This document shows positions 5,627-64,000 of a stretch of 64,000 nucleotides of DNA, one piece after another. The position numbers and the translations under genes are program-made. Source of the stretch: Candidatus Woesearchaeota archaeon (GTDB lineage: Archaea > Nanobdellota > Nanobdellia > CAYMVK01 > CAYYFB01). The notes beneath the pieces are model-generated. The model made no database searches. It was given only the letters and a program-made list of their open reading frames with translations, and was not told where the DNA came from. Position 1 is the first letter of the stretch. Every line of letters starts with the position of its first letter. The stretch lies in the NCBI GenBank assembly GCA_964471255.1, contig CAYYFB010000001.1, positions 110,798 to 174,797 on the forward strand, written 5' to 3'.

Positions 5627-5630
5627 AAAC

Positions 5631-5771: not shown

Positions 5772-5773
5772 AT

Positions 5774-6567: not shown

Positions 6568-6689
6568 CAATAAAATTCTTAATCTCAATTCTTCTTGGAA
6601 TTGTTATACTTTCGATTTGCATTCACTTACTTATTTCTATAGGGTTAAAAGGGATTGGTTTACTAAAAGAATTGGGAAGTGAAGGATGA
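6564..6689 (+). CDS. micro-ORF, 41-aa single-TM peptide
   Basis: Translates as MTIKFLISILLGIVILSICIHLLISIGLKG... ATGA overlaps at both ends. Confidence 0.25.
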   Translation: MTIKFLISILLGIVILSICIHLLISIGLKGIGLLKELGSEG

Positions 6690-8789: not shown

Positions 8790-9231
8790 GAGGGGTGTGC
8801 TTACTTTTTTTGATCCTATCTTAATATCCTTTATCATCCTTATCTATGGAATTGGAATATATTTCGCACTTAAAGAGGAAATGAAAGCAGTAATAGTAAC
8901 AAGATACGAATTATCAAGAGAAATTCAAGAAATGTCTATAAGAAGCGTATCTCAAATTGATTATATACGCCCAATCTCTCTGAAGGATGAAGAACATATA
9001 ATCGAAAAGATATTTAAACTTAATTATACAACATACCCCGAAAGTTTTCTTGAAAGATATTATAAAGAATTATCCGACGTTAGAAGGATGTGTAATACGC
9101 CTCTTTACTCATCTAGACCTTTTTGTCAATACCTTAACTCTTTCATCTCTTCTGGTGTGCAGAAAGGGTATTCTCAAGGCAAATGCGTTCCTCAATATGG
9201 TGCATTTAAAGGAGTTATTTGTTTGAAATAA
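8764..9231 (+). CDS. pilin-like protein (KNKRG|VLTFFDPILISFIILIY)
   Basis: 155 aa. Charged n-region, then Gly, then a hydrophobic helix, typical of a class-III signal peptide. Confidence 0.4.
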   Translation: MSMRMLKNKRGVLTFFDPILISFIILIYGIGIYFALKEEMKAVIVTRYELSREIQEMSIRSVSQIDYIRPISLKDEEHIIEKIFKLNYTTYPESFLERYYKELSDVRRMCNTPLYSSRPFCQYLNSFISSGVQKGYSQGKCVPQYGAFKGVICLK

Positions 9232-9232
9232 T

Positions 9233-17025: not shown

Positions 17026-17127
17026 GGGGCCGTAGCCTAGTGGTAGGGCGTCGGGCTCCAGAAGAATCTGGAGCGCTGATAAGCTGAAGAAACCCGAAGG
17101 TCCGGGGTTCGAATCCCCGCGGCCCCA
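17026..17127 (+). tRNA. tRNA-Trp(CCA) with ~30-nt intron in the anticodon loop
   Basis: Acceptor GGGGCCG/CGGCCCC. Anticodon stem TCGGG/CCCGA. Loop CUCCAG[intron AAGAAUCUGGAGCGCUGAUAAGCUGAAGAA]A. T-arm GGTTCGAATCC. Confidence 0.85.
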
Positions 17128-21900: not shown

Positions 21901-22524
21901 AAAGAAATTATCAGAATGATTGGAGAAGGTCTTCTTCCGAGATTAACAAAGAAACATATTCGATTATATTCTCTAATCTTTTGGAGATTTATAGCTTCCC
22001 AAATGATTCCTTGTAAGGTGTTGTACGGAGAATTTAAAATTAGGGCAGGTCCTCTTCAAAAAATAGTAAGGTTTCCTATTAAAATCTTAGATGAAGGGTG
22101 GCTTAGGGCCACTCCAGTAATAAGTCCAGTACCGGTTGTGGAAGGGAAAGTTACTATCTTAAGAAAACGGATTAGGAAGGATTCCCCCATTTCTCTTTAT
22201 ACAGATGGGACATTAGTACAAGAAATGAAGAAAAGAGGGATAGGAAGACCTTCCACCTACGCTACTATTCTCTCCAAGCTTAAACAAAGGTACTATGTTA
22301 TTGACAAACACTACCTTATTCCAACCTCCACCGGGGAGAAACTTGTCAAGTATCTTTATGAAAAATATCCAAAGCTTGTTGATGAAAAAAGGACAAGAGA
22401 GCTTGAGGAAAAGATGAGAAAAATTGAAGAAGGTAAAATCAATTATCAGGACGTTTTGAATGAACTTTATGAAGAACTAAGAAGCCTCGGTCTTTTCTCT
22501 CAATTTAGAGAGAGCTCTTCTTAA
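18928..22524 (+). CDS. rgy: reverse gyrase (helicase-like domain fused to type IA topoisomerase)
   Basis: 1198 aa. N-terminal Zn finger CPNCHGE..CCRC. Walker A 'SPTGTGKTT'. 'FVDDID'. Helicase motif VI 'QASGRCSR'. TOPRIM 'VVESPTKARTIANFFG'. Topo-IA active-site 'ITYHRTDS'. Internal Zn ribbon CKKCG..CPRCG. Confidence 0.95.
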   Translation: MSKKGIMMAIFQGVCPNCHGEISDGRLKIRNPCCRCLSKEIIKKDLIENIKEIYFALKKEGKVLDYEKIYKEFILLDEFERFFESCVNNKLWSVQRNWAFRVLRGESFAIVSPTGTGKTTLAAALSVFLARKFEKTIYFIVPTTTLVRQVASLIEKFGLFPLYYYSGMRKKEKDAFQERLLKNSFEILITTSQFLSRNFDILKGIHFDIIFVDDIDALLRTSKNIDRVLQLIGFSQEDISLAMEVIKSKRKLLRAKKGEILNILKEIKEIKRKLEKKEKKGQIILMSATARPRGTRPKLFRELLNFQIGESATGMRNIVDAYFVTEDLDKALLEVIKKLGNGGLIFVARDFGEEKCKQLKTYLNQHGIKADTLLAGEKLDKIDLFREGEIDILIGSAHFYGVLVRGLDLPERVRYTVFYEIPRFKLKIEEALLNPFFFLYFTDEILKIKEEKELREIASNIEKFLTSVSPNAIRMLVRELKSNIPEKFTEIIKKIKRGKEIIQNLLSDPEVKKGLKEAKSFIFSPPVVVFPDVNTYIQASGRCSRLYAGGLTKGLSIILTTNEKNIKLLERRLRWKYDIIFRKLKELKLSEILEEIDKDRKKVKMIKEGKLKSERKDPVKTILLVVESPTKARTIANFFGKPCVRIRNGLRIYETSTGDMVINIVATKGHLFDLITNQYFHGVKRINNLWIPIYATIRTCKKCGEQFVGLLKCPRCGSETYSDAWERIKTIQEIAKEVDLVLIGTDADAEGEKIGWDIACAIAPFSREIKRVEFHEITERAILSALRNPRDINLKLVEAQIVRRIEDRWIGFELSEEVQREKVGYSAGRVQTPVLKWIIERYKERKNNMRFYLDIEIPIGLKIEFELPSKIKDKEDAESFADQIEEIEVEKIKEWEEILNPLPPFETNTLISEASRSLGWDSKTTMRIAQDLFELGFITYHRTDSIRVAPEGIGIAKYFIKDKFGETYFKGRSWGTGGAHECIRPTRGLEPKEIIRMIGEGLLPRLTKKHIRLYSLIFWRFIASQMIPCKVLYGEFKIRAGPLQKIVRFPIKILDEGWLRATPVISPVPVVEGKVTILRKRIRKDSPISLYTDGTLVQEMKKRGIGRPSTYATILSKLKQRYYVIDKHYLIPTSTGEKLVKYLYEKYPKLVDEKRTRELEEKMRKIEEGKINYQDVLNELYEELRSLGLFSQFRESSS

Positions 22525-23727: not shown

Positions 23728-24167
23728 AAGGAATATCCCCTATTGTATCTACTGTTCTTCTTATATTAGTTACTCTTGTTATTTCAACTCTTTTCTTTCT
23801 TTGGTACAGCAGCTTTGAGAAGAAAATAAGATCCGAAATAGAAAGAAGAGCTGAAGAAGAAGTCGGAAGATTTGCTTACAAAATAAGCGTAGAGACCGTT
23901 TTCTGTAATACCTCTTCTAAGGAAGTAAAAATATTTATTAGAAATGTAGGGGAAAAAGAAATACCTACAGGTCAGGCTTATGTTTATATCTATGATGAAA
24001 ACATGCAATTATTGTATTCATCTCCGGAAGATTTTGAAGAGTTGCCTCCAGACAATGTTAGGGTTCTGAATATTACCTGGAATGGTTTAGCTCCTAATAG
24101 TCATTATTATGTTAAAGTCACCGTTCCGAAGTATCCCGAAGGGGATGTAGGAGATTGTGAAACATGA
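23724..24167 (+). CDS. archaeal type IV pilin/flagellin-like protein (class-III signal peptide)
   Basis: Starts 'MKG|ISPIVSTVLLILVTLVISTLFF', the archaeal pilin N-terminal domain pattern (K/R-G then I-S-P-V/I..). Confidence 0.7.
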   Translation: MKGISPIVSTVLLILVTLVISTLFFLWYSSFEKKIRSEIERRAEEEVGRFAYKISVETVFCNTSSKEVKIFIRNVGEKEIPTGQAYVYIYDENMQLLYSSPEDFEELPPDNVRVLNITWNGLAPNSHYYVKVTVPKYPEGDVGDCET

Positions 24168-25045
24168 GCCCCCTTCTCCAAAAGGTCCTTCTTACTTTAT
24201 TAGTCTCTTTGGTAGCATTTTCAACATACTTCTGGGCTTCCCCACTAGTCAAAAAGAATGTTGAAAAAGGGGAAATTGGCACTTGTGTCTCTCTGCTGGA
24301 GAGCCTAGGTAAAAAAATATTACTTATAGGTTTGACTGGAGGAAAAACCGACTTGGACATCTATTTGCCAGGGGAGCTATTCATCAAAAAAGACTACATT
24401 GAGCTAAGAATAAAATCTAAATTTCCCCTTATTTCGCAAGCTAATTTTCTTCCAATAAACTCTTATTTCATGCCGTATGAGAGGAAGAAAAATGTCTATC
24501 TGCCTGATCTTGTGAGAAATTGTTCGCAGGTAAACTGTACTTGGTGTTTAAAGTATAATTGTGATATAAAAGAAGTTAAGATAGGAAATTATACAAATAT
24601 AACAAAATTTGCGATTTTTTGGATTTATGATAAATACTCATCCGTTTGCTTTACCAACGATTCCTTTGAAGATAATTATCTTAATATCGATGCAGACTAT
24701 TGTTTTTTCGAAGGAGAAAAATACAAAAACAAAAAAATTTTCCTAATTGATGAAGGAGGGGATTATTTTATAACTGAAGGAAATTTGGTTAAAACAAAAG
24801 TGGACGATCCCGGAGAAAGGGTCATTGTGGTAGGGAAAAGCATCGGAGGAAAAAAATATATAACAATATTCAGATTGTACATACTTAACTTTGTTGATGA
24901 GCTTGGAAGAGAAGAGGAAATATTCATAATATGCCCAAAGAACTGCTGGAAAACCTCTGGTGCTCATGAGATGGAAATCGCGTTTATTAATTCAACAACC
25001 AATGGTTCACATATAAGGAAATTTATATCTATTCATTTCAAATAA
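24164..25045 (+). CDS. N-terminally anchored Cys-containing protein of pilus operon
   Basis: 293 aa. N-terminal TM. Between the pilin and the ATPase. Confidence 0.45.
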   Translation: MSPLLQKVLLTLLVSLVAFSTYFWASPLVKKNVEKGEIGTCVSLLESLGKKILLIGLTGGKTDLDIYLPGELFIKKDYIELRIKSKFPLISQANFLPINSYFMPYERKKNVYLPDLVRNCSQVNCTWCLKYNCDIKEVKIGNYTNITKFAIFWIYDKYSSVCFTNDSFEDNYLNIDADYCFFEGEKYKNKKIFLIDEGGDYFITEGNLVKTKVDDPGERVIVVGKSIGGKKYITIFRLYILNFVDELGREEEIFIICPKNCWKTSGAHEMEIAFINSTTNGSHIRKFISIHFK

Positions 25046-25047
25046 TT

Positions 25048-26832
25048 GTGGATATAAGAAAGTTATTAGAAAAAATTAGAGAAGCAAGAAGGAGAAAAAT
25101 TTTGGAGAAATATTTTGGCAAGGTGATTGAAGAAAGAGAAAAGGAAATAAAGGCAAAAAAGCCCTCTATTATTTCTGCCCCACAAGTAATAATAGAAGGG
25201 ATGCCAGTAACTTCCAAAGCCCCTGCAAAAATTGGGGGGCCCATTATTTTTACCTATAAGCCTTTGGAGTTACCCGAAGAAGAGATAATTGAAAAAGAAA
25301 TAAGATCTCTTATCTTACCTAGAGAGGTTACTAAGGAGTTACAAAGGGTTCACGAAAGGAAACCTCTCATCTATATAGAATTTGAAGGAAAAAGGAAGGC
25401 CATGGCTTTTTGCGAAATAAAATGGGATAAAGAAATGCAATCGTTGATTTATCGTGTTATAGAACCAAAACTAGATGAAAAAGAAAAAAAGGCACTAGAA
25501 GAGATAAAAAATTATATTGAAGAAAAGTTAGATATAGATTTCACAGCAATAAAGAATGTAGAAGAGGCTTTTGAATACATTAAAGAGAAATTCAGAGAAG
25601 GAGTAAAGAAGATAGGGTTAAAATTCAATGAAGAGCAAAAATTTAAACTTTTATATTACCTATACAGAGATCTCATAGGCCTCGAAAAAATAGAGCCCTT
25701 GATGCGGGATCCTGATATTGAAGATATTTCTTGTGGTGGTGTCGGGTTACCAATATTTATTTACCATAGAAACCCACTTTACGGTGAAATGCCAACTAAT
25801 ATTGTTTTCACTTCTGCTGAAGAATTAGACAATTTCATTATAAAACTTGCTCAAAGGTGTGGAAGGAGTATCTCAGTCGCTAAGCCGCTTCTTGACGGAA
25901 GTTTGCCTGACGGCTCTAGAGTTCAATGTACTTTAGGGACAGATATAGCTAGAAGAGGGAGTAACTTTACTATAAGGAAGTTCTTCAGAAGGATACTCAT
26001 TCCAACAGATCTTATTTCTAATAATACTTTAAATGAAATACTTTTTTCCTATCTTTGGCTGCTAGTTGAAGCAAAAATGAACATTTTAATCGCTGGACCT
26101 ACAGCTTCCGGAAAAACAACGCTCCTAAATTGTCTTTGCCTTTTTATTCGTCCTGAGATGAAGATAGTTTCTATCGAAGACACGGCAGAGATAAGGCTAC
26201 CACACCCTAATTGGGTCCCTCATGTAAGTAGAGAGGCTTTTGGCCCGCATGGATATGGAAAGGTAACCTTATTTGACTTACTGAAAGCCTCTCTACGTCA
26301 GAGACCAGATTATATAATAGTAGGAGAAGTGAGGGGTAGGGAAGCCTATGTTATGTTCCAAGCCATGGCAATTGGACATGCATGTATGGGCACCATCCAT
26401 GCAGAGGACTTGGATACTATTATCTCCAGATTGACAACCCCACCCATTAACTTGCCAAAGTCCTTGCTAGCAAACCTTGACGCTGTCGTTTTCTTGACAG
26501 CAACAAAAATAAGAGGAAAGTTCAGCAGAAGAGTTAGCAATATAACTGAAATAACCGGATTTGATCCAAGAAGAAACAGGGTTCTTAGGAAAATATCATT
26601 TAAATGGATCCCAGCAGAAGATAAATTTCAAAGCCAGGGGAGCGAGATTTTAGAAAAAGCAGGAAAGAGATTGGGGCTAGAATCCACCGAACTCGTAGAA
26701 GAGCTCAGAAGACGGGCGCTTTTACTTAAATGGCTAACGGAAAAGGGTATTAGGGATTATAAAGAGTTTTGGCGGTATATTGGTCTTTATTACTATAACC
26801 CTGAAGAATTATCAAAAATTATGAGAAAATGA
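25048..26832 (+). CDS. FlaI/TadA(CpaF)/VirB11-family secretion ATPase
   Basis: Walker A 'LIAGPTASGKTTLLN'. Asp box 'IVSIEDTAEI'. Walker B 'DYIIVGEVRG'. His box 'GHACMGTIHA'. ~230-aa N-terminal extension. Confidence 0.85.
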   Translation: MDIRKLLEKIREARRRKILEKYFGKVIEEREKEIKAKKPSIISAPQVIIEGMPVTSKAPAKIGGPIIFTYKPLELPEEEIIEKEIRSLILPREVTKELQRVHERKPLIYIEFEGKRKAMAFCEIKWDKEMQSLIYRVIEPKLDEKEKKALEEIKNYIEEKLDIDFTAIKNVEEAFEYIKEKFREGVKKIGLKFNEEQKFKLLYYLYRDLIGLEKIEPLMRDPDIEDISCGGVGLPIFIYHRNPLYGEMPTNIVFTSAEELDNFIIKLAQRCGRSISVAKPLLDGSLPDGSRVQCTLGTDIARRGSNFTIRKFFRRILIPTDLISNNTLNEILFSYLWLLVEAKMNILIAGPTASGKTTLLNCLCLFIRPEMKIVSIEDTAEIRLPHPNWVPHVSREAFGPHGYGKVTLFDLLKASLRQRPDYIIVGEVRGREAYVMFQAMAIGHACMGTIHAEDLDTIISRLTTPPINLPKSLLANLDAVVFLTATKIRGKFSRRVSNITEITGFDPRRNRVLRKISFKWIPAEDKFQSQGSEILEKAGKRLGLESTELVEELRRRALLLKWLTEKGIRDYKEFWRYIGLYYYNPEELSKIMRK

Positions 26833-26833
26833 T

Positions 26834-27691
26834 ATGATATCAGGAATTTCTTGGAGAATAGGTAAAGTTCTTTCAAAAAAATTTCCAGAAGTGAGAAGCT
26901 ACCTAAAAATTGCTGGGATAAAAAAGACTAGTGAGGAATATCTAGGGCAATGGTTTCTTATTTCAGTATTTTTATCAATAGCTACGGGCCCACCACTAAT
27001 TGTACTCATGGATTTGCTGCAAAAAGTTTTTCCTAGTAAATATCTTTTTATTTTAATATTAACCATTCCACCTATCGTTTTCTTTTCTGTCTTTCTATTT
27101 TCCCTTTTTTATCCAAAATTTAAGGCTGAAGAGAGAAGACACAGGCTGGAAAATGTTCTCCCATTTGCCTGCTGTTACATGGCATGTATTGCTTCCTCAG
27201 GTGTTCCTCCTTACATGATGTTTAAATTCATGGCAAAAATGAAAGAATTCGGTGAGGTTTCTAAGGAATGCCAAAGTATAGAGAGAAATATGGAAATATT
27301 TGGATATACATTCTCAGAGGCTCTTTCTTTGGCTATGAGATATTCGCCGTCACCCAAATGGAAAGAACTCCTCTCAGGGATCCTCTCTACTTCTACCGGA
27401 GGGGGAGATATAACTTCTTTCTTACTAGAAGCTTCGAAGAAGTATAGCGAAGAGATGAAAAGAAAAATAAAAGACTTTTCGCATCTTGTCTCGATTCTTC
27501 TTGAAATTTATATCACAATAGTAATTACTGGGACGATAATGAGTAATATAATGATTTTACTTATGGGAGTAATGGGAGGACTTTCCAATATTCTGCTTTG
27601 GATTCAATATGCTCTTACTTTCTTCTTAGTTCCTGTCGCAACCTTCTTACTAATTTTATTTATTAGGGCAGCCTCTCCCGTAAAGATATGA
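26834..27691 (+). CDS. TadB-like T2SS-F-domain membrane protein
   Basis: 285 aa. Cytoplasmic helical T2SSF-like domain ('SEALSLAMRYSPSPKWKELLSGI..GGGDITSFL') followed by TM helices. Confidence 0.6.
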   Translation: MISGISWRIGKVLSKKFPEVRSYLKIAGIKKTSEEYLGQWFLISVFLSIATGPPLIVLMDLLQKVFPSKYLFILILTIPPIVFFSVFLFSLFYPKFKAEERRHRLENVLPFACCYMACIASSGVPPYMMFKFMAKMKEFGEVSKECQSIERNMEIFGYTFSEALSLAMRYSPSPKWKELLSGILSTSTGGGDITSFLLEASKKYSEEMKRKIKDFSHLVSILLEIYITIVITGTIMSNIMILLMGVMGGLSNILLWIQYALTFFLVPVATFLLILFIRAASPVKI

Positions 27692-28761
27692 GATATGGAT
27701 GGTTTAGCATCCTATTACTTTTGCTCGGATTTTTCCTATTTTTTTCATTAATTAGGAAGGAAGAAATTTTCAAGGCAATTTATTCACTCGCTCTGTCCAT
27801 AATTCTTTCTATAGCTATTTTTTTCATTGATTTCTATTTTTATATTTCTCAAATCAAGAAAATGGAGGAAATGTTCCCTGAATTTCTGTCTTCTCTTTCC
27901 AGTGCTCTGAAATCAGGAATGACAATAACACAGGCTTTTAAACATACTTCAGGTCTTAAACTTGGTCCCCTTACTCCTCTAATAAAAAAGGCATTTTACA
28001 AATTAAGTTGGGGGATACCCTTTCCTAAAGTGATAAAGGATCTTCAAAAGAGCATACCATCAAAAGAAATAAAAAATGCTTTGTCAGTAATTCGGGAGTC
28101 TTATTACATCGGTGGGGAACTTGTAAAGACCCTCGATACTCTTTCAGATTCTCTCAGAAGAATAAGAGAAATAAAAAAAGACATTCAAACAACCCTTGGA
28201 GAGCATTTAAAGGTTATATACACTATAAACTTCCTTTTTATGGTCATCTTAATCGTAATGTACAATGTACTGATCCCTCTCCAAATTTATGGAGTTGAAG
28301 GCACTGAAGAATTTGGATTAACTTTAAGAATAAATGTCGAGAAATACAAATTGAGTTTTCTAGCTTTTGGGATCGTAGTGGGGGCATGTTCTGGAGTACT
28401 GGCCGGGACAATTGTAGGGGAAAAAATCACGGAAGGATTAAAGCATGCCTTAATATTGGTATGTATTAATACTATACTCCTGTCTTTTTTAATAGTAAGA
28501 AAGTCTATTATCTTTGAGATTAATTTTCCACCAGAGATAGAAGTAGGAAGAGTCTATAAGATAGAAGGAACCCTACTCATTGAAGGAGAGCCTTGCTCTG
28601 GAAGATTTATAATAGAGGAGTGGAATAAATCAGGAATTATCTCCAACGGCAAGTTTTTCTTTTCTATAAAATTTTTAGAAAAAGGAAAGAAAGAAGCAAC
28701 ATTCGTCGCAATATGTGGGAAAGAAAGGGTAAAAAGAAAAATAAATATAGAGGTGAAGTAA
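27688..28761 (+). CDS. TadC-like T2SS-F-domain membrane protein with C-terminal beta-rich extension
   Basis: 357 aa. 'ALKSGMTITQAFKHTSG..' T2SSF-like domain plus TM helices. Extra ~100-aa soluble C-terminus. Confidence 0.6.
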   Translation: MRYGWFSILLLLLGFFLFFSLIRKEEIFKAIYSLALSIILSIAIFFIDFYFYISQIKKMEEMFPEFLSSLSSALKSGMTITQAFKHTSGLKLGPLTPLIKKAFYKLSWGIPFPKVIKDLQKSIPSKEIKNALSVIRESYYIGGELVKTLDTLSDSLRRIREIKKDIQTTLGEHLKVIYTINFLFMVILIVMYNVLIPLQIYGVEGTEEFGLTLRINVEKYKLSFLAFGIVVGACSGVLAGTIVGEKITEGLKHALILVCINTILLSFLIVRKSIIFEINFPPEIEVGRVYKIEGTLLIEGEPCSGRFIIEEWNKSGIISNGKFFFSIKFLEKGKKEATFVAICGKERVKRKINIEVK

Positions 28762-28825
28762 GCTGACCCCGGCAAGATATATTTCCTACCTTTACTTCTT
28801 TTCTCTCCTCCTATTTTCAATCTAT

Positions 28826-29317
28826 TTGATATTTAATGAAATGAGATCTCCAAGGTATAGCCACAAATTACCCCTTTGCCTTGAGAGAGTTCCATGGTTA
28901 ATCTTTTCGACTTATTATGATGACAAATTAGCGAACTCATCTTTAATTATTTTTAGAAGATTAGGAAAAATTTGTATTATCAATCAAAACACCTCCGTCA
29001 ATTTGAGTTTAATAACTGACTGCAAAAATTTCACTCTACAGGGAACAGAAGCTAGTGATAAAATCGAAGTCACTGAGGAGGATAGGCTTTTTGGGGAGAA
29101 TCTTACTTATTTAAAAATATTTCTGAGAAGCGAAAATCCTAATGATAGAGATCAAGTATGCTTTGTTTGTCAATCTCCTTTTTTTATTAGAATAAAGCAT
29201 ACAAATAAATCCTATTGTGTTGGCAACTTCTGTCCTTCCAAATGCCCTGGTAAGCTTTCTATGAGAGAATACTTTGAAACATATAGGGGGATGCTTATAA
29301 AGGTAAGGGAAGTATGA
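28826..29317 (+). CDS. hypothetical Cys-containing protein
   Basis: 163 aa. No recognisable motif. Operonic. Confidence 0.35.
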   Translation: MIFNEMRSPRYSHKLPLCLERVPWLIFSTYYDDKLANSSLIIFRRLGKICIINQNTSVNLSLITDCKNFTLQGTEASDKIEVTEEDRLFGENLTYLKIFLRSENPNDRDQVCFVCQSPFFIRIKHTNKSYCVGNFCPSKCPGKLSMREYFETYRGMLIKVREV

Positions 29318-30234
29318 AAGGCTTCTATATTTATCTAGAGCTGGCTCTTTGTGTGTTTTTAATTTTTTTGACTTATCTGCATATTCAGGCAAGAATTCCA
29401 AAAATTGAAATAAAGGAAGAGGCCTGTCCTTACTACAAGTATTATGCCCTTCTAAAATCCTTAAGACCTTTCTTAGTTGAATACATAGACTCTGGTAAGC
29501 TTTACTTAATCGACGATTTACTGGAGGGGGCATTGGACAAAGAGGTTTCAGTTGATATTCTGATATACACACCAGTGAGAGTTACCAATTATTTCAATGA
29601 AACAAAAAATTGTGTACTAGGAATAGTATACAATTTTTGCAATGGAACTAACTTCAATACCATTAGAATTGAAAAAGAAGGAGCATTAAGGACAATGATA
29701 AGAAAAAACTGGAGAAAAAAGATTATAAAAATAAACGCCAGCAAAGGCTGCTTCAAATTAGATTTGTCTTTCCCAGCAGGCATGAACACTTCCTGCCTTC
29801 GAGTTTTCTGGAAAGGCTACCCTCTGAAAATAGGATATAATGGCTCTTTATTGGTCTGTTCACCAGTAAATTTGACTAATGATATCATAGACATATACTA
29901 TTGTCTTGGGTATACTGTGGCCCAACCGCAGTTGACAAATATAACAGCCAATGAATCTGCCACTTGGGGTGAAATATCCGACACTGAAGCCGATATTGGG
30001 GAAGCATATTTCTTAGCATCTATCCCTCCCGGCCCTAATTTATTCTATCTTGTATATGGAATTGGAAATCTCCCTCTGTTTTCAAACTATTCCCTCAAAG
30101 TTAACTGTAGTATGCCAATATATGTTCCAGAGTACTCCTGTAAAGCAGAAAGAGGTAAGATAATAGAAGGAAAAAGGTTTTCAATTGCTGTTCCTTTCTC
30201 AAAGGGTGTGGCCGTTCTTTATATAACCATATAG
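29314..30234 (+). CDS. pilin-like secreted protein (MKG|FYIYLELALCVFLIFL)
   Basis: 306 aa. Class-III-like N-terminus. Cys- and N-x-S/T-rich ectodomain. Confidence 0.45.
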   Translation: MKGFYIYLELALCVFLIFLTYLHIQARIPKIEIKEEACPYYKYYALLKSLRPFLVEYIDSGKLYLIDDLLEGALDKEVSVDILIYTPVRVTNYFNETKNCVLGIVYNFCNGTNFNTIRIEKEGALRTMIRKNWRKKIIKINASKGCFKLDLSFPAGMNTSCLRVFWKGYPLKIGYNGSLLVCSPVNLTNDIIDIYYCLGYTVAQPQLTNITANESATWGEISDTEADIGEAYFLASIPPGPNLFYLVYGIGNLPLFSNYSLKVNCSMPIYVPEYSCKAERGKIIEGKRFSIAVPFSKGVAVLYITI

Positions 30235-36792: not shown

Positions 36793-36851
36793 AAAGTAAA
36801 AAGTTCTGCCACTAATATAGTCTTAATCTAGACCCTTTACCAAGGATATTT

Positions 36852-55898: not shown

Positions 55899-58436
55899 AT
55901 GAGAAAGATAGTTCTCCCACTTTTACTTCCTTTGCTTTTTGCAGCGTATCCACTAGTTTGGCATCCCTGTGATGATATAGTTTGGAATGTAGGATGTGAT
56001 ATTATAGCAGGAGACATAAAGGCTGTTAGATATTATGACTACAATGATACAAGATATTATATAAAGCCTGCAGGCCTAACCAAGATAAAAGAGCTTGAAG
56101 TCATGGCAAATGCTAATCTAGGTGGGGTCCTTTATGTAGATGCCCAAAATAAAAGAGTTGGAATTAATACTAACACTCCTCAAGAGGCCTTGCATGTAGT
56201 GGGAAATATCCTAGTTCCAGAGAACTATAAAATAAATTTCGGAAATGGTCAAGGCTATATTTATTCCGATGGATCTTATTTTAGAATAGGGTTTGGAAAT
56301 AAGCCTATCTGGATTAATAGCTGGGATGATAATGTTATTATCTACGCAGGAGATAGTCAGTACGTTGTTTTAGGACATTGGAACGCTCCAAATTATATCA
56401 AAATACATACCTGGAAATGGCCCTCGGCCACGGAGCCCCTACAACCTTCTAATCCTTTGGGATTTACTTATGGTTGGTATGATTCGGGGACAGGAACAAC
56501 AAAAACTAGTATTATTTGGCTTAAAGCTTATGCTTTAGATACATCTGGAAAAGGAAAACTGTCTATTGAACATGGAGGAAGTGAACTAGCTTATATAGAT
56601 ACCCAGGGCTGGACAAAATTTAATGGTCCTGTAGGAATAATGGCAAATCCAGGCGCTAGTTATGCTCTCAACATAGGAGGAAGCTTAGGGATAAACGGAA
56701 ATATTGTTCTAAAGGTAGACCAAACAAAAACACCTTACACAGTAGTCATAGGTGGGGGAGGGGGTATTGGTAAGGTAAGAGTTCCAAAGGCTAGGGCATT
56801 CGAGGTTGGAGAAACTCTTTTTGTGAATGATACAAGCGGACAAGTAGGGATCGGAATTGAAAGTCCCAAAGATACATTGCATGTTAAAGGAGGATTAAGA
56901 GTAGAGGCCGGAACTTTTGATATTGTAGCACCCAAATCTCCTCCTTCTGACATAAGAACAGGTTCTGAAGCCGACTCTGGTAGAGTTTGGATACAGTACG
57001 GAGCTGTAAGTGCTGCGCCAAATCTGATACTTGTAGACTATGATGAAGGTCCAGCCATAGTTTTCAGACAAACTGGAACGGGTAATGAAACAAATCCGCA
57101 GTATCAAGCTTACATAGGAATGCATAGCAATTCAAATGATCTCTTCGTAATGGGAGGAAACTTTGGAATTGGAACCAGTAGCCCACAATATAAACTTCAT
57201 GTCCAAGGAGATGTTTACTCCAGTGGGTATTTGAGAACAGATACTGGAATTTGCATAGGAAATGACTGCAAAGCCAGTTGGGGAGAAGTTGCATCAGAAG
57301 GTGGATGGGTAGATATGGATGGTATAGTAAAGTTAGCTAATGCAAGTGACAGTGTAAATGCTACAACTCTGTGGATAGACAATACAAATGGAAGAGTTGG
57401 AATAGGAACGTACTCTCCATCAGCAAAGCTCACAATTGCTGCTGCTGATTATACTGGAGCAATTCATATAGTTAGTGATACTGGGGAAAAGAGATTCTCT
57501 CTATTGCCAAGATCTGATGGAGGATGGGAGATGTTTGATTATTACGGCGGGAACTGGAATGAAGGGATAGTCCAGAGAGGGGGGAGTGTAGGAATAGGAG
57601 TTGTACCCTCCTATAAATTAGATGTATATTCCCCCAGTGGAGGAGTAATAGTAGGAAGATTTAGAGTAGGAACAGAGGCAGGATCTTGGATCCGCTTTGA
57701 GAATACCGAAGGAAGATGGGACGTAGGAATGAACGGCCTAGAGAGATTTTCCATATATAATCCAGACACTGGTAAGCAGGCATTGGTTATCGACCCTTCA
57801 GGAAATGTGGGAATAGGGACCATAGACCCAACAGAGAAGTTAGATGCAAGGGGAAACATTCAATTCGGTGCAGGTTCCTATTGGCAATTAGACGAAGGTA
57901 GTTGGACCGGAAGCGGACATTCTGATCAGGCAAACATTATGTATGAAGGCCCTAACCCAGTCTCTACCTTTGGATTTCATGGACAGGGTCCAAAAGAGGT
58001 AAATGTGATTATAGATGGAAGATTAGGAGTAGGGTATGCCTCTGAAGTGAAAGATTTGCCCTATGGATCGGCTATTTTCGCAGGTAAAATCGGTGTCCAT
58101 GTTACTAATCCAGCAACCCGGCTTCATGTAAACGGTAGCGTTAGACTAGAAAATGGCAACATAATTCAGTGGACAAGTGCTGACGGCACCACTTACTGGA
58201 ATGTACTAAGCGTCGATTCTTCGGATGACGTTAACCTGAACACTGGAGGAGGGCATGATATCAAATTCACTGAGGCAGGGAACGTAAGAATGATAATAAA
58301 AGGATCAACAGACAGAGTAGGGATTGGCACGGAAGATCCAGAGAAAAAATTGGATGTAAGAGGAGATTTTCAGGTTATTTCTGGAGGAGGATCTTTCAAA
58401 GTGGATAGTAGTGGAAATATTATAGCAGAAATCTAG
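55899..58436 (+). CDS. large secreted repeat protein with tail-fibre-like 'GIGT..P..KLHV/LDV' repeats
   Basis: 845 aa. Signal peptide. ≥9 copies of '(R/N)VGIGTxxPxxKLxVxG'. Gly/Thr/Ser-rich beta-type composition. Confidence 0.6.
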   Translation: MRKIVLPLLLPLLFAAYPLVWHPCDDIVWNVGCDIIAGDIKAVRYYDYNDTRYYIKPAGLTKIKELEVMANANLGGVLYVDAQNKRVGINTNTPQEALHVVGNILVPENYKINFGNGQGYIYSDGSYFRIGFGNKPIWINSWDDNVIIYAGDSQYVVLGHWNAPNYIKIHTWKWPSATEPLQPSNPLGFTYGWYDSGTGTTKTSIIWLKAYALDTSGKGKLSIEHGGSELAYIDTQGWTKFNGPVGIMANPGASYALNIGGSLGINGNIVLKVDQTKTPYTVVIGGGGGIGKVRVPKARAFEVGETLFVNDTSGQVGIGIESPKDTLHVKGGLRVEAGTFDIVAPKSPPSDIRTGSEADSGRVWIQYGAVSAAPNLILVDYDEGPAIVFRQTGTGNETNPQYQAYIGMHSNSNDLFVMGGNFGIGTSSPQYKLHVQGDVYSSGYLRTDTGICIGNDCKASWGEVASEGGWVDMDGIVKLANASDSVNATTLWIDNTNGRVGIGTYSPSAKLTIAAADYTGAIHIVSDTGEKRFSLLPRSDGGWEMFDYYGGNWNEGIVQRGGSVGIGVVPSYKLDVYSPSGGVIVGRFRVGTEAGSWIRFENTEGRWDVGMNGLERFSIYNPDTGKQALVIDPSGNVGIGTIDPTEKLDARGNIQFGAGSYWQLDEGSWTGSGHSDQANIMYEGPNPVSTFGFHGQGPKEVNVIIDGRLGVGYASEVKDLPYGSAIFAGKIGVHVTNPATRLHVNGSVRLENGNIIQWTSADGTTYWNVLSVDSSDDVNLNTGGGHDIKFTEAGNVRMIIKGSTDRVGIGTEDPEKKLDVRGDFQVISGGGSFKVDSSGNIIAEI

Positions 58437-58485
58437 ACCCTTACTTTTTGATTTTCTTTTTTCAATCCTCTTTATAATAGCTATC

Positions 58486-61400
58486 ATGGGTAGAAAGGTA
58501 AGTATAGTTGTTATCTTTTTTCTCTTCTTGCCGGTAGTGTTCCCAGTAGGTAGAAGTTTCATAGTCAGAAACATTTCTAACCCTAATCAAGTATTTTTCA
58601 TAGTAAATGGAACGAAAGGGTACGTAGGAATTGGAACTAATGCGCCAGCCTATCCATTAGACGTAATTGGAACCATTAGAGGAACCGGGTTAATAATAAC
58701 CACAGGACCTGTAACCCTGCCAGATAATTCTATTCTGGATAGATATATCCAAGATTTGAGCTGGGCCAAACTAAGAAATTATCCAACAGGATGTCCAACC
58801 GGCTATGCAGTTCAGATTATAGGAGATACTCTTACATGTACTCCAGTTAACCCTGAAGGGACGATTACCGGGTCTGGAGTGGCCGGTTATATTGCAAAAT
58901 TCAATGGAACCTCAACACTTACAACTTCAGTAATATACGAGAGTGGAGGAAAAATCGGAATAGGGACCACATCCCCAGCTTATGAATTAGATGTCTCTGG
59001 AAGTGCAAGAATAACAGGAGATTTTATATGTACGGATTGTATTACTTTAGGATCTGAGACACAAGGGAATTACGTTGCAAAAATCACTTCTAATGCTCCA
59101 ATTGCTGTTTCTGGAGGGGCTGGAGAAGGAGTAACTAATACAATTTCTCTTAACTATAATACCACAGTCTTCGCTTTGGATCAAAATAACTATCTTACCC
59201 TAAGCACCCCTTATTACACAGGTTCGGTCTATGATTCAAGATTTATCAATGAGGGGCAAAGTGCTGGAGGCGATCTCTCCGGAACTTACCCAAACCCTAA
59301 AGTAATAGCCATACAGGGAAGACCTGTAAGTTCAGCTGCTCCAGCTACTAATCAAGTGTTAATGTGGGACGGAAGCCAATGGAAACCAGCCGATGTTGAT
59401 GCTTCGCCCACCAACGAGCTCCAGAACATCTGGTATACTATCGCTGTTCCAGCAGGAACTAATCCAGAGCCAGATTCAACTCAAGATACTCTTACTCTAA
59501 CTGTAGCAAGTGGCTCTGGATTGACAATTACTGGAGATGCAACAACTGATACTATAACCTTTGGTACGGATTTCTCAGTAATACAAAAAAGAGTTACAGG
59601 AACATGTCCTGCAGGTAGTGCAATCGCTGTTATAAATGAGGATGGGAGCGTATCTTGCCTAGATGTAACAGGAGCCGGTCTTTCGGTCAGTGGTAACACA
59701 ATCAATGTAAATGTGAATACCAACAAAGGATTACAAATAGTAAGCGATGCTTTGGAAGTTAAACTCGGCACAGGTTTAGCCTTTGATGGATCGGGAAATA
59801 TCTATGTAAAATACGGCTCTGCTGCAGGAACTGCGGCAGAGGGTAACAAACAAATAACAATTTCAGCAGGCTCTGGATTAACGGGAGGAGGAACAATAAC
59901 GATAGGAGCTGGAGGAAGCGTAACCATAAGTCATGCCGATACTTCTTCTCAATCTTCTGTGGATAACACAGGAGGAACTGTAATCCAAGATATTACCTTA
60001 GATACTTACGGGCATGTAACGGGAATAAGCTCCGTTAATCTGGATAATAGGTATTACACAAAATCTCAGGCAGATTCGAGGTTTACAAATGTAGACCAAG
60101 ATGAAACAATTTCTGGAAGCTGGACTTTCTTAAATGATGTAACATTCATGAAGAATCTCAGGGTTGCTGGAAATATTACCTACGTAAATATGCAAACATT
60201 AAACGTAAATGGTTCCTTAATTCCTCCCGTGGATAATTGGTTCAGCATAGGGAACTCAACTAATAGGTGGAAAAATGCATATTTCGCAGGAACAGTAAAG
60301 GCCTCGGTTTTAAGTGGAGACTTAAGCTGCAGTGGATGCGTTGGTTCAACAGAAATTGCTGATAATTCTATTACTAGCGCTGATATAAGTGATTCAGTAA
60401 AGTATGTTTCTGTTCAAAATTCAGCTGGAACAGAGCAATTTGCGGTCACCGATGGAAAAAAATCCTTACAATTTGCTGTTGGAGGAGGCTTAAGTATAAA
60501 CTTTGACCCAACCAATCACAGGATAACTTATTCACACGCAGATACATCTTCACAAAGTTCAGTCAGTAATAGCGGGGGAAAAGTTATTCAAAGCGTTAGT
60601 TTGGACACTTATGGGCATGTAACAGGTCTAACTTCAACAGATTTAGACAATAGATATTATACAAAATCTGAAGCCGATTCAAGGTTTGTTAATGCGGCTG
60701 GAGATACTATGGGAGGATATTTAAATTTCAATATTGTTAAATCTGGTAACTCTGCAGGAATAAGGTGGAGCGGACTAAGTGATGAGTACAAAATCTATGT
60801 AAGAGAAACGGCAGGGAGCGAGGATACAGATCTTGTAATTGAATATGCAGACAACGCAAACCAGGACAACATTGTCTTCCTGATGAATCCCTACAATACA
60901 TACCCAAAAGAAGTCCTTGTGTTAAGATATAGCGATATAATAGCAAATGCAACTGTAAGGCCCTTGTTAAATAATATAAATAATTTAGGCACCTCTAGCT
61001 ACCAGTGGGCAAATATTTACGGAGTAAATGTTTATCAATCCGGAAATAAGGTTTTAGATACAGCCACAACTTTTACTGACTCAGCATCTAGTGATATAGA
61101 CGTTTCTGGAACTTACAACTCGTTAAATTTGCAAATTAAGACTGGGGCTGTTGGAAGTAGTGAAATAGCTGATGGAAGTATAACAAATGCAGATATAAAT
61201 ATTAACACAAAGTTTGTTTCAGTACAAGATTCTTCAGGAAGCGAGAAATTTCCAGTAACTAATGGGAATAACGCATTAAAATTTGAAGGAAGCGGAAGTG
61301 TTAGCATTAGCTTTGACTCTACAAACCATAAAGTGATAATAACGGGTTCTGGAATTACAGATTGTTCTCAATGTGATTCAAGGTTTGTTAATGCGGCTGG

Positions 61401-62127
61401 AGATACTATGACCGGGGATTTGAACATGCAGGATCATAACATAAAAGATGCTAATAATGTAGAAACAAATGCAATTTATGACCCGGAGGATAGTAGAATA
61501 GAGATCAAAGATACTGCTATAATCTACGATACAGCCACGGGGGATCAGTATGACTACGATGTAAGGATTGGTGGGGATGCAGCAAATGCTTTATATATAG
61601 ATACAGCAGAAGGAGCCGGATTGGTCAATCTAGTAGCTGGAGCTTATTGGGATGGCTCCAAATACGTTTATGGAGGATCTAGAGGGGCTTCTAGAATTGA
61701 GTTGCATGATGGGGAATTTTATTTATATGTTGGAGGGACATCAGGAACTGCAGGGAACGAGGTGAGCTGGAAAGAAGTAATGCGTGGAGAATCAGATGGG
61801 GATGCATATTTCCCATACAGAATTGGAGTTGGGGTTTCACCATCCGAAAAGTTGGAGGTTGCTGGGAATGTAAAGGCAAAAAATCTATATCTGAATCAAG
61901 GCCAAAATGAGGGATCAATTTACAATGTAGATATAATAAAAGGGTATAACGATATAAGATTCAGGTTGGGAACATCTTCCAAATTCTACTTTCAAGATTC
62001 TGCAGGAAATACCAAGGCATGGGTAGATTACAACGGAAATATGTATCTAGCTGGAAATACTATTAATCTTAATGGAGTATATATCAAAAAAGTAGGAAGT
62101 GATATTTACATAAGCGATTCTCCTTAG
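58486..62127 (+). CDS. giant secreted repeat protein (GIGT repeats, duplicated 'SHADTSSQSS..DTYGHVTG..DNRYYTKS.ADSRF' cassettes, 'GDTMTGDL' motif)
   Basis: 1213 aa. Signal peptide. Internal near-duplicate cassettes. Phage-tail-fibre-like short motifs. Confidence 0.6.
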   Translation: MGRKVSIVVIFFLFLPVVFPVGRSFIVRNISNPNQVFFIVNGTKGYVGIGTNAPAYPLDVIGTIRGTGLIITTGPVTLPDNSILDRYIQDLSWAKLRNYPTGCPTGYAVQIIGDTLTCTPVNPEGTITGSGVAGYIAKFNGTSTLTTSVIYESGGKIGIGTTSPAYELDVSGSARITGDFICTDCITLGSETQGNYVAKITSNAPIAVSGGAGEGVTNTISLNYNTTVFALDQNNYLTLSTPYYTGSVYDSRFINEGQSAGGDLSGTYPNPKVIAIQGRPVSSAAPATNQVLMWDGSQWKPADVDASPTNELQNIWYTIAVPAGTNPEPDSTQDTLTLTVASGSGLTITGDATTDTITFGTDFSVIQKRVTGTCPAGSAIAVINEDGSVSCLDVTGAGLSVSGNTINVNVNTNKGLQIVSDALEVKLGTGLAFDGSGNIYVKYGSAAGTAAEGNKQITISAGSGLTGGGTITIGAGGSVTISHADTSSQSSVDNTGGTVIQDITLDTYGHVTGISSVNLDNRYYTKSQADSRFTNVDQDETISGSWTFLNDVTFMKNLRVAGNITYVNMQTLNVNGSLIPPVDNWFSIGNSTNRWKNAYFAGTVKASVLSGDLSCSGCVGSTEIADNSITSADISDSVKYVSVQNSAGTEQFAVTDGKKSLQFAVGGGLSINFDPTNHRITYSHADTSSQSSVSNSGGKVIQSVSLDTYGHVTGLTSTDLDNRYYTKSEADSRFVNAAGDTMGGYLNFNIVKSGNSAGIRWSGLSDEYKIYVRETAGSEDTDLVIEYADNANQDNIVFLMNPYNTYPKEVLVLRYSDIIANATVRPLLNNINNLGTSSYQWANIYGVNVYQSGNKVLDTATTFTDSASSDIDVSGTYNSLNLQIKTGAVGSSEIADGSITNADININTKFVSVQDSSGSEKFPVTNGNNALKFEGSGSVSISFDSTNHKVIITGSGITDCSQCDSRFVNAAGDTMTGDLNMQDHNIKDANNVETNAIYDPEDSRIEIKDTAIIYDTATGDQYDYDVRIGGDAANALYIDTAEGAGLVNLVAGAYWDGSKYVYGGSRGASRIELHDGEFYLYVGGTSGTAGNEVSWKEVMRGESDGDAYFPYRIGVGVSPSEKLEVAGNVKAKNLYLNQGQNEGSIYNVDIIKGYNDIRFRLGTSSKFYFQDSAGNTKAWVDYNGNMYLAGNTINLNGVYIKKVGSDIYISDSP

Positions 62128-62177
62128 TTTCTTTTCTTTCTAAATATTTTTAATACCTTTTTATTTCTTTTATTTCT

Positions 62178-64000
62178 ATGAAAAGACTATACCTAGTTTT
62201 CTTATTGCCTTTCTTAGGCATTGTTTTCTCGGCAGTAGTGCTAAATGCAACTGATAAAGTAGAAATGAAAGTAAGTGGAAACGTGTGGTTTAGAGTAACT
62301 TCAGCAGGAGATTTGGTTGCCCCTGCACTAACAAGTTGCTTATTCCTTTACACAGACAGTAGTGGAACTTTTCATTGTGGAACATATACTCCAGTAAAAA
62401 GCACTGGAAGTGCTGGTTATCTAGCTAAATTTATTGACGCAACGACCATAGGGAACTCCATCATTTATGAAACTGGAGGAAAAATTGGAATAGGGACAAC
62501 CTCACCCTTTTCTAAACTTTTTGTTAGTGGTGGTAAGATCAGAATTCACTCTACTGACAAGGGTGGAGGCCAGCTTCAAATAGGAAATCCAAACGACGAT
62601 GAAGCTAGTCTAGGTTTTTTTACTGATGTTGCAGCTGATTGGAGCTCTTATTCTCACGGATGGGTAATAGGCCCAGATGTATGGGGTATAGGAACCGGAA
62701 AATTTGGAATAGGAAGTTATGGAGGACCATATAATGTTAAGTTAACTATAGAGGAATCGACAGGGAATGTTGGAATAGGAACTACTTCTCCCGCTTATAA
62801 ACTGGATGTCTCAGGAGATGCAAGAGTAACAGGGACATTATATGCAAATACAAGAGTTGTTGTAAATTCAAAATGCATCTCAATACCAGCCAACACTGAA
62901 AAGTGGATAAGGGTAGCTGAATCAACAAGCAACGCGGCTAGACAAGCAGGACTATTTGTCGCTAGATGGAGTGTCGGTGGCCAACATGGGCATGTAATAT
63001 TCTACGCTGGAGCAGACTATGGAGCAGATTATGGGATCAGATTGACCATAATAGGCGCAGATAGATTCGGAGACCAAGGAGTTGATAAAATAAGAATTTT
63101 AGAAAATCGAACCTACGACCCGATGTATTTAGAGTTGTATGTTGATAATAATAATGCTAATTATGCGATGACTGTTTGTGTAGATCAACTATATCGTGGT
63201 TATAATGGCTGGAATTTAATTGACATAACAGACGGAGGTGTCCCAGCTGGCTATACTTCGCATGAAATAGACGCAAACACTGCTTTTGCTGTTAATGAGA
63301 ATAGCAAGATATTTACAGTAGAGGAAAACGGTAATGTAGGAATAGGAACGGCATCTCCAGCTGATAAATTACATGTAAAGGGATGGTTAAGAATAGAAGA
63401 CACAGATACCTCTGATTATGTAAAAATATCTACAGATGGATGGGCACACTTTGTAACAACTAAGAATGTAATAGATTTTCAGCCTCAAAATATAAACTAC
63501 GAAGAGGGTGTGAGAATATATGTTGATGGGAATGGAAAAGGAGCAATAAGGGTTGATGGCGATGCAATATTAGCAGCTGAAGCCGGAAAAGTGGGGATCG
63601 GGACAACTTCCCCAGACTCTAAACTACATATAATAGGTGGGGTTTGTATAGAATCTAGCGATTCTGGTTGTTCTCAATCTGCTGGAAACTTAAAAGTTAG
63701 TGGAACCGCTACTGTAGGTGATTTAAGTTGTAGTAACTGTGTTGCACTAGGTTCAGAGACTTCTGGTGTCTTGCCTCTAGCTGAGGGTGGAACAGGATCA
63801 AGCTTGAGTGATCCTAATGACGATAGAATATTATTTTGGGATGATTCAGCTAGCAAAGTAACCTGGCTAGATGTAGGAGGTGGTTTGGCTATTAGTGGAA
63901 CTACAATATCGCACGCAGACACTTCCTCTCAATCTTCAGTAGACAATTCTGGAGGAACTGTGATTCAAGATATCACTTTGGACACTTATGGGCATGTAAC
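62178..64000 (+). CDS. third giant secreted repeat protein (partial; continues past window end)
   Basis: ATG at 62178 (MKRLYLVFLLPFLGIVFSAVVLNA). Frame open to the window end. Shares GIGT repeats and the SHADTSSQSS cassette with the 58486 gene. Confidence 0.55.
   Translation, partial: MKRLYLVFLLPFLGIVFSAVVLNATDKVEMKVSGNVWFRVTSAGDLVAPALTSCLFLYTDSSGTFHCGTYTPVKSTGSAGYLAKFIDATTIGNSIIYETGGKIGIGTTSPFSKLFVSGGKIRIHSTDKGGGQLQIGNPNDDEASLGFFTDVAADWSSYSHGWVIGPDVWGIGTGKFGIGSYGGPYNVKLTIEESTGNVGIGTTSPAYKLDVSGDARVTGTLYANTRVVVNSKCISIPANTEKWIRVAESTSNAARQAGLFVARWSVGGQHGHVIFYAGADYGADYGIRLTIIGADRFGDQGVDKIRILENRTYDPMYLELYVDNNNANYAMTVCVDQLYRGYNGWNLIDITDGGVPAGYTSHEIDANTAFAVNENSKIFTVEENGNVGIGTASPADKLHVKGWLRIEDTDTSDYVKISTDGWAHFVTTKNVIDFQPQNINYEEGVRIYVDGNGKGAIRVDGDAILAAEAGKVGIGTTSPDSKLHIIGGVCIESSDSGCSQSAGNLKVSGTATVGDLSCSNCVALGSETSGVLPLAEGGTGSSLSDPNDDRILFWDDSASKVTWLDVGGGLAISGTTISHADTSSQSSVDNSGGTVIQDITLDTYGHV

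Follow-up and report, generated by a model that had tools for sequence, protein, structure and literature searches.

What might three long, adjacent genes, whose products begin with hydrophobic leaders and carry a motif reminiscent of phage tail fibres, be doing among the housekeeping genes of an archaeon? The genes, called p1, p2 and p3 herein, lie at the end of a 64,000-nucleotide (nt) stretch of DNA from Candidatus Woesearchaeota archaeon (GenBank assembly GCA_964471255.1, contig CAYYFB010000001.1, positions 110,798 to 174,797 of the forward strand), and this whole stretch is referred to as the window. A sequence-only reading, made without database searches, had singled them out as giant secreted proteins that could be either cell-encoded attachment fibres or captured viral parts. 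Judging from homology, we consider it probable that the array encodes three resident, non-viral adhesive fibres that are exported, assemble as trimers and differ from one another at their distal ends; these would belong to the superfamily of mosaic adhesive trimer (MAT) proteins and S74 tail fibres, and specifically to the type that lacks S74. The genes and their leaders, the latter located by a Kyte-Doolittle scan, are as follows.

55899..58436, + strand: fibre gene p1, an intact open reading frame (ORF) of 845 amino acids (aa)
55899..55964, + strand: hydrophobic leader of p1, MRKIVLPLLLPLLFAAYPLVW, a signal peptide or signal-anchor
58486..62127, + strand: fibre gene p2, an intact ORF of 1213 aa that encodes a mosaic fibre protein
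58486..58557, + strand: N-terminal hydrophobic leader of p2, MGRKVSIVVIFFLFLPVVFPVGRS
62178..64000, + strand: fibre gene p3, the first 607 codons of a 1039-aa protein, with the frame open at the window end
62178..62249, + strand: N-terminal hydrophobic leader of p3, MKRLYLVFLLPFLGIVFSAVVLNA

The basic arrangement described in the sequence-only reading, three tandem + strand genes with N-terminal leaders, is borne out by the ORFs and the hydropathy scan. The p3 gene starts at the ATG at 62178, and the complete length of its product (1039 aa) is taken from an identical public contig (protein P0119; L001:10001-13120). Each protein has one hydrophobic segment, at its N-terminus, and the scan found no other membrane-like segments. 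A class III (pilin-type) signal peptide was ruled out by eye, as there is no [KR][GA] cleavage motif preceding the hydrophobic stretch. The proteins are rich in glycine, serine and threonine, as had been stated (G 11-14%, S+T 13-20%), and the claim that they carry no enzyme motifs holds at Pfam and NCBIfam thresholds. Searches with whole proteins and with fragments of p1-p3 returned no enzyme domain and nothing above threshold; the matches below threshold were to DUF642, End_tail_spike, Adeno_shaft and Cu-binding_MopE. The spacers of the array are 42, 49 and 50 nt long and AT-rich, with TATA-like boxes within 50 nt upstream of the genes, and oligo-T runs follow the stop codons of p1 and p2. 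Therefore, the fibre genes may be separate transcription units.

The VGIGT motif on which the original description was built is real. When all six frames of the window were scanned, the pattern G[IV]G[TVI]xxP occurred 11 times, every copy inside a fibre gene. The three full proteins hold 13 strict copies versus 0.05 expected (2000 shuffles, maximum 2), and a relaxed pattern, with the consensus GxVGIGTxSPxxKLHVxG, finds 16 (7 in p1, 2 in p2 and 7 in p3, with four of the last inside the window). There are also two imperfect copies, one shortened (p1) and one degenerate (p2). The statement that the proteins are dominated by this repeat is correct for p1 and p3 but not for p2, which has two clear copies. 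Copies are separated by 76-229 aa, and therefore they represent module borders rather than a tandem short repeat.

The likely nature of these borders is provided by work on Bdellovibrio bacteriovorus, in which the MAT family was defined as ~1000-aa surface fibres whose three chains are intertwined into a beta-helix (Caulton et al. 2024, PMC10769870). Capping loops, with the consensus V-G-G/N-small-x-x-P-x-x-x-L, shut each cleft of this helix and are common to MATs, S74-type phage fibres (K1F, T5) and MyRF, and the supplementary loop alignment includes the MAT and MyRF capping loops AVGIGTTNPSGILH and RVGINTDRPDEALV (PMC10769870). The p1 loops have the same 14-residue form as these two examples. 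Moreover, phmmer searches of the PDB link p1 to the Bdellovibrio Bd2133 fibre (8OND, E 2.5e-6), in an alignment that passes through Bd2133's own GNVGIGATAPTAKLEVAG and VGINTAAPLQKLHV, and p3 to the Bd3182 fibre (8OJN, E 1e-3). A profile of p1 and 35 homologues matches Bd2133 (8OND, 8.7e-32), Bd3182 (8OJN, 2.4e-16), Bd1334 (8OML, 3.4e-14) and Bd2439 (8OL4, 2e-10); its matches to 6F45, 7DC3 and 8JOV sit on the S74 part that comes from the homologues, not on p1. Modules of p1-p3 were also found by BLASTP in the Bdellovibrio proteins P0165, P0185 and P0194. Judged by these alignments, the window motif is the capping loop of an intertwined trimeric beta-helix, and since p1-p3 are homologous to Bd2133, Bd3182 and Bd1334, whose crystal structures have been solved, we predict that they, too, have a trimeric beta-helical shaft. 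The loops are located as follows.

56154..58358, + strand: span of the p1 capping loops, with the Val of VGIG at aa 87, 316, 422, 500, 637, 731 and 807 (Val codons at nt 56157, 56844, 57162, 57396, 57807, 58089 and 58317)
57585 onward, + strand: shortened p1 capping loop, starting at aa 563
58621..58995, + strand: the two clear capping loops of p2, aa 46-60 and 156-170
61819-61860, + strand: degenerate third capping loop of p2, aa 1112-1125
62481..63632, + strand: the four in-window capping loops of p3, aa 102-116, 197-211, 386-400 and 471-485

The three proteins use this common element in different layouts, which were mapped by motif and by DNA repeat (self-BLAST for internal repeats gave nothing useful). 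In p1, the leader is followed by beta-rich modules bordered by 7-8 capping loops, and there is no separate tip domain. Its C-terminus, only 25 aa past the last loop, lies by a loose alignment near the S74 self-cleavage point, for which three homologues give distances of 26-29 aa, counted from where the last loop starts. In p2, the leader leads straight into the first of two capping-loop modules, and these are followed by Cys-loop/CxxC modules, by the HxDTSxQ module in two copies and by two AAGDTMxG motifs; the C-terminal third is poorly conserved. The first HxDTSxQ copy is the most widely common module of the family, as it forms the peak of homologue coverage, whereas coverage falls from 30-70 homologues to 1-12 across aa 780-1213. 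Pieces of this C-terminal region are reused at other positions in a few homologues (high-scoring segment pairs to P0090, P0081 and P0082). The full p3 protein has seven capping loops, a phage-fibre-like insert domain and, beyond the window, a Cys-rich C-terminal domain (L001:12578-13117) of 180 aa with 20 cysteines and the motif DCDGDG...NDCDGQVDE. The GSETxG and AAGDTMTGDLN motifs that had been listed beside VGIGT are present but rare: GSETxG occurs twice (p2 aa 189 and p3 aa 525), both times downstream of CxxC, and AAGDTMTGDLN once, together with one variant.

59029..59067, + strand: CxxC-LGSETxG motif of p2, CTDCITLGSETQG
59893..60120, + strand: first HxDTSxQ module of p2, core AGSGLTGGGT...SHADTSSQSSVDNTGGTVIQDITLDTYGHVTG...DNRYYTKS (alignment consensus; DNA repeat D2)
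60496..60720, + strand: second HxDTSxQ module of p2 (DNA repeat)
60694..60726, + strand: AAGDTMGGYLN motif of p2 (DNA repeat D3)
60823..62124, + strand: C-terminal third of p2, aa 780-1213, the presumed distal end
61393-61425, + strand: AAGDTMTGDLN motif of p2, the second copy and the only one of this exact form
62787..63332, + strand: p3 insert domain between two capping loops, aa 204-385
63729-63767, + strand: CxxC-LGSETxG motif of p3, CSNCVALGSETSG
63912 onward, + strand: third HxDTSxQ module, in p3, cut at the window end

The link to phage tail fibres, which the sequence-only reading had proposed together with a link to adhesins, is likewise well founded: it is seen in PHROG families, in annotated phage genes and in the solved MAT fibres. 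PHROG tail-fibre families match p1, p2 and p3 with E-values down to 1e-24, including families 9942 (2.5e-23) and 18345 (6e-12) for p1 and 4277 (2e-8) and 21722 (1e-6) for p2. Searches of cultured phages by tblastn gave matches inside annotated tail-fibre genes, such as those of Synechococcus phages S-CRES1/2, S-SM2 and S-H1 and of Vibrio phages; in Thermus phages phiFa and MN1, they fall in the distal tail fibre. Over 37 aa, the HxDTSxQ module of p2 and the Celeribacter phage P12053L tail fibre share 76% identity. The p3 insert matches tail-fibre proteins of Salinibacter, Rossellomorea and Thermus phages, of Podophage Lau218 and of the archaeal Halorubrum virus Serpecor1, with E-values from 2e-8 to 5e-5 and 28-29% identity. 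The S74 chaperone/protease is absent from the array, with no PF13884 match in p1-p3 at E<=1 and the SDxxxK motif near the C-terminus of none of the three, versus 60 of 194 homologues that have it within their last 220 aa.

These observations are consistent with the following model. Each gene would be transcribed separately from its own TATA-like box, and its product would be exported via the N-terminal hydrophobic leader (the leader is observed, and from it we infer export and cleavage). Three chains would then intertwine into a long, modular beta-helical shaft in which each module is closed by a VGIGTxxPxxKL capping loop. The N-terminus would stay at the cell, perhaps as an uncleaved signal-anchor, and the C-terminal end would face outward and bind the ligand. 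The distal end of p1 might be a bare helix end, comparable to that of an S74 fibre that has cleaved itself; in p2, it might be a mosaic region of low conservation that includes a small beta-sheet; and p3 might present a phage-fibre-like knob within the shaft together with its 20-cysteine C-terminal domain.

The closest known counterparts are the Bdellovibrio MATs without S74 (Bd2133 and Bd1334; 8OND and 8OML). Like p1-p3, these are chromosomal and ~1000 aa long, have the same capping loop in a beta-rich shaft, and occur as several paralogues per genome with different C-terminal ends; they are exported, as p1-p3 presumably are, and the likeness extends to sequence homology and shared modules. 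Unlike them, p1-p3 are archaeal and lack the ~130-aa N-terminal domain of MATs, and no TNF-like, C-type lectin or Bd2133-type sandwich tip was detected in p1-p3. The same shaft modules and capping loop are shared with S74 phage fibres, such as the K1F endosialidase stalk and the T5 L-shaped fibre pb1, and with their cell-encoded relatives, and many of the nearest homologues of p1-p3 end in S74 with SDxxxK. However, p1-p3 differ from the phage fibres by the lack of S74, the presence of putative export leaders and a cellular context. A more distant comparison is possible with the eukaryotic membrane-bound transcription factor MyRF (PDB 7DC3), which according to the MAT paper has the capping loop and an S74-linked trimeric beta-helix, but the p1-family profile match to MyRF lies on the S74 part that p1-p3 lack. 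Trimeric autotransporter adhesins and the giant SPEARE proteins of Nanohaloarchaeum are presumably also long modular surface proteins that mediate attachment. We take their export and anchoring logic to be different, and p1-p3 have no beta-barrel anchor. No homology of p1-p3 to these proteins was detected, although no search aimed at them was made.

Several points weigh against the proposal that p1-p3 are exported trimeric fibres. Structure prediction, named earlier as a way of checking the fold, did not confirm it: AlphaFold2 (AF2) monomer models were poor both for p1 with 35 homologues (mean predicted local distance difference test score, pLDDT, 51.8) and for residues 25-1213 of p2 with 37 homologues (mean pLDDT 44.9). 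In Foldseek searches of the PDB, MAT fibres took 14 of the 15 top places for p1, but with template modelling (TM) scores below 0.35, and p2 gave no structural match. The link of p2 to the solved fibres is also weak by sequence (p2-family profile versus 8OND, E 2.9e-5). In Bdellovibrio, a ~130-aa beta-rich domain that is thought to hold the fibres on the cell directly follows the signal peptide in 21 of 21 MATs (PMC10769870), yet BLASTP gave no alignment of p1-p3 to the first ~170 residues of P0165, P0185 and P0194, and no alternative cell anchor was found in p1-p3. Signal-peptide cleavage sites are not obvious in any of the three proteins. Anchoring, trimerization, surface display and ligands are all features that we infer, and host attachment by this organism is a plausible analogy.

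The AF2 models do hold some local information. They are all-beta, with no helices, and are confident only at the capping loops, in a few hairpins and in the last ~50 residues of p2, which form a small beta-sheet (pLDDT about 80, model residues 1140-1189). Poor monomer models are expected of an obligate intertwined trimer, yet they are not evidence for one. Because of the quality of these models, we base the fold assignment on sequence homology.

That homology extends over a very large family. Database homologues are 600-2000 aa long, and many of them, named 'tail fiber domain-containing protein', have PF13884 (Peptidase_S74) at the C-terminus. The sources given by name include Bacteroidota, Hymenobacter, Bdellovibrio, Verrucomicrobiae, Patescibacteria, Dehalococcoidia, Nanoarchaeota, Ca. 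Culexarchaeum yellowstonense and a Caudoviricetes record. Among 1.84 billion cluster representatives searched with HMMER, relatives of p1 number 17,727 at E<=1e-3, 2,842 at 1e-10 and 86 at 1e-30, with the closest just 39% identical to p1. Many of these relatives are giant, at 2,000-7,700 aa, and as many as 37 of their stretches match the p1 module. Different segments of p2 have their matches, at 62-82% identity, in different proteins and at positions that are not colinear. Shaft modules are found in 30-100 homologues, and hardly any homologue shares the first 50-75 aa or the C-terminal regions; judged from these alignments, a widely common shaft with near-unique ends is the pattern expected of fibres.

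The view that such genes are unusual for an archaeal chromosome is only half true, as homologues lie among housekeeping genes on at least three contigs with archaeal markers (L005, L007 and L008) and on two contigs of cellular context (L003 and L004). The neighbours identified are as follows.

L003: SRP54 and FtsY; P0080 and P0085, both with family motifs; several other large unannotated proteins
L005: ThrRS with an archaeal editing domain, RadA and class I LysRS
L007: TFE, CDC48, MCM and Rpr2
L008: Nanoarchaeota; L7Ae and Kae1

The GC content of homologue-bearing contigs ranges from 29% to 55%. Homologues in archaeal contexts carry clear AxA-type signal peptides, whereas the lone Caudoviricetes homologue has none. 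The RadA proteins of the window genome and the L005 genome are 61% identical, and the L005 fibre shares 62% identity with a tip segment of p2; by sequence comparison, these similar values would fit either module exchange or strong constraint. We also observed that the close p2 homologues P0081, P0082 and P0085 (L003) and P0098 (Ca. Culexarchaeum) have a common mature N-terminus, 'Q..QSHPLSQI.PID.NL', right after an AxA-type signal peptide. It may be a lineage-specific anchoring module, and p1-p3 do not have it.

Within the array, the paralogues are mutually 22-37% identical (one 58-aa piece reaches 52%), and the DNA motifs common to the fibre genes are 61-83% identical. Judging from these values, p1-p3 are old, mosaic paralogues. 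The suggestion in the sequence-only reading that paralogy reflects ongoing diversification is at odds with this divergence and with an exact-protein look-up, which found the locus base-for-base identical in both other assemblies that carry it. A diversity-generating retroelement or recent gene conversion was considered and rejected, as the window has no near-identical template/variable repeat pair and the inter-gene DNA repeats reach 61-83%. A metagenome scan with TrmI gave relatives that are only 34% identical and have no fibre genes next to TrmI, but these are too distant to inform.

What, then, might the fibres do? Bdellovibrio MATs are surface-displayed, recognise and handle another cell, and in one case bind prey glycans (PMC10769870). 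By analogy, the most likely role of p1-p3 would be adhesion to another cell, either a host or a partner, or to a surface polymer. A more specific idea, which we regard as possible though somewhat doubtful, is that the array is an archaeal counterpart of the MAT fibres that serves as a three-fibre host-recognition kit for a small thermophilic archaeon living on other cells, with S74-free folding and modules exchanged with viruses and distant archaea.

Perhaps the fibres instead serve a general surface role, such as attachment to minerals, polysaccharides or biofilm matrix, within-species aggregation, or formation of a protective coat. The superfamily, with its 17,727 cluster representatives, is not limited to predators or symbionts, and the C-terminus of p3 has a weak match to the metal-binding Cu-binding_MopE type (E 0.031, below threshold). 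However, the only cellular members that have been studied experimentally, the Bdellovibrio MATs, bind another cell's surface glycans (PMC10769870), and an array whose three products differ in their distal ends looks more like a toolkit for recognition than like a bulk coat. We consider a general role unlikely, but it is the alternative that survives best.

A viral origin of the working parts is far harder to reconcile with the locus. Under this alternative, p1-p3 would be remnants of an integrated archaeal virus, or else fibres assembled in the cytoplasm onto the tail of a tailocin or contractile injection system. Their clear homology to phage tail-fibre families and genes, including that of the archaeal tailed virus Serpecor1, and the mosaic module structure typical of phage fibres would both be accommodated. 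However, the 10 kb on either side contain no gene for a capsid, portal, terminase, sheath, tube, baseplate or integrase. The genes upstream are an arginase-family gene, a histone gene, TFS and the methyltransferase gene named in the sequence-only reading, which is of the GCD14/TrmI type, and those downstream encode S3Ae, a Toprim protein, RadA, S9, L13, L18e and L21e. For the rest of the window, the Pfam scan covered only the seven largest ORFs, each of which is cellular. In addition, p1-p3 have hydrophobic, putative export leaders, which phage fibres assembled in the cytoplasm lack. GC content at third codon positions (GC3) is 0.25-0.29 in the fibre genes versus 0.28-0.32 in housekeeping genes, and synonymous codon choice is equal; therefore, the higher total GC of the fibre region is an amino-acid effect. 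A scan of IMG/VR viral contigs with p1, p2 and p3 found no close relatives, and homologues recur singly or in small groups among the housekeeping genes of other archaea. Thus, of the two possibilities raised at the outset, the cell-encoded attachment fibre fits the evidence, and the captured viral fibre or tailocin is quite improbable. It hardly seems credible that p1-p3 are enzymatic, tailspike-like proteins, that is, secreted polysaccharide depolymerases of the endosialidase type, for although there is a faint End_tail_spike match in p2 (aa 564-601, E 0.086), another faint one for P0080, and a sub-threshold resemblance of part of p2 to DUF642 (E 3e-5, 24.2 bits versus a 27-bit cut-off), the End_tail_spike match covers just 38 residues of a 160-position model and no catalytic domain reaches the Pfam or NCBIfam threshold in whole proteins or fragments.

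Returning to the proposal of resident adhesive fibres, the possibility had also been raised that these are ordinary S-layer proteins or part of a cell-envelope cluster. We found neither: the proteins are not S-layer-like, with no Pfam or NCBIfam match to S-layer signatures in p1-p3, and the downstream DNA is not a cell-envelope cluster. The number of N-glycosylation sequons likewise does not exceed expectation, at 6 observed versus 6.6 expected for p1, 8 versus 18.7 for p2 and 3 versus 8.4 for p3, although this is a weak test of an S-layer role. Other predicted surface proteins in the window (2742-13740 and 24164-30234) are sequon-enriched two- to five-fold (e.g., 27 versus 10.6). Depletion in p2 and p3 may reflect tight trimer packing.

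That the organism is an archaeon is evident from the markers in the window, which include archaeal RNase P RNA, 5S rRNA, a thermosome gene, the PolD small subunit and a histone. Its finer placement is less clear-cut: S3Ae gave just one match in a GTDB scan, to Woesearchaeota at 29% identity, and the thermosome did not discriminate, with 66-68% identity to its counterparts in Aenigmarchaeota, Thermococcales and Nanoarchaeota. A single-chain reverse gyrase with zinc finger, helicase, Toprim and topoisomerase domains is encoded at 18928-22524 on the + strand. Reverse gyrase is a marker of thermophiles, and its presence suggests that the organism is thermophilic.

Little is known of the means by which small archaeal symbionts or parasites recognise their hosts and hold on to them, and the archaeal host-attachment structures described so far are nanotubes, pili and unidentified 'antennae' (PMC11329633). 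We found no description of a fibre family like this one in archaea in the searchable literature, and the MAT paper mentions archaea in neither its main text nor its supplementary text (PMC10769870). Cell-encoded, phage-fibre-like adhesive trimers and the capping-loop motif are known already; what is new is an archaeal, chaperone-less and presumably differently anchored variant in the form of a three-gene array with distinct ends. Together with its relatives on other archaeal contigs, the locus shows that archaeal genomes encode relatives, predicted to be exported, of both phage receptor-binding fibres and Bdellovibrio prey-binding fibres, and the array supplies concrete candidate genes for attachment and specificity. 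It also offers a natural case of S74-free fibres from a probable thermophile and illustrates the sharing of modules between viruses and cells across domains. If the array is indeed a host-recognition kit, then it would be a direct candidate family for host specificity in archaeal episymbionts, and 'grabbing another cell' with such fibres would be a solution that recurs in viruses, bacteria and archaea. These claims are bounded by their basis in homology, by the very large size of the superfamily, and by the fact that databases list the proteins only as 'hypothetical'.

The window also holds features that are separate from the fibre array. At 251-13740 on the + strand, a T2SSF-like gene is followed by eight genes whose products all start with a hydrophobic segment, and then by a gene for a DUF2341 protein of 1144 aa, in which there are 44 cysteines and 27 N-x-S/T sequons, versus 10.6 sequons expected. 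The region has the look of a locus for a pilus or surface structure that includes a heavily glycosylated surface protein. A second type IV pilus/secretion-type ATPase gene (T2SSE, PilB3_C) begins the + strand region 25048-28761 and is followed by two genes, the last of which (27688-28761) encodes a product that begins with a hydrophobic segment. A 45-nt direct repeat (36793-36837 and 58398-58442, 71% identity) ends in a shared ATCTAGACCCTT, and its second copy spans the p1 stop codon, but this repeat is probably due to chance. Finally, a 102-nt tRNA at 17026-17127 on the + strand, detected with Rfam (64.4 bits) and not reported by ARAGORN, is probably an intron-containing archaeal tRNA.

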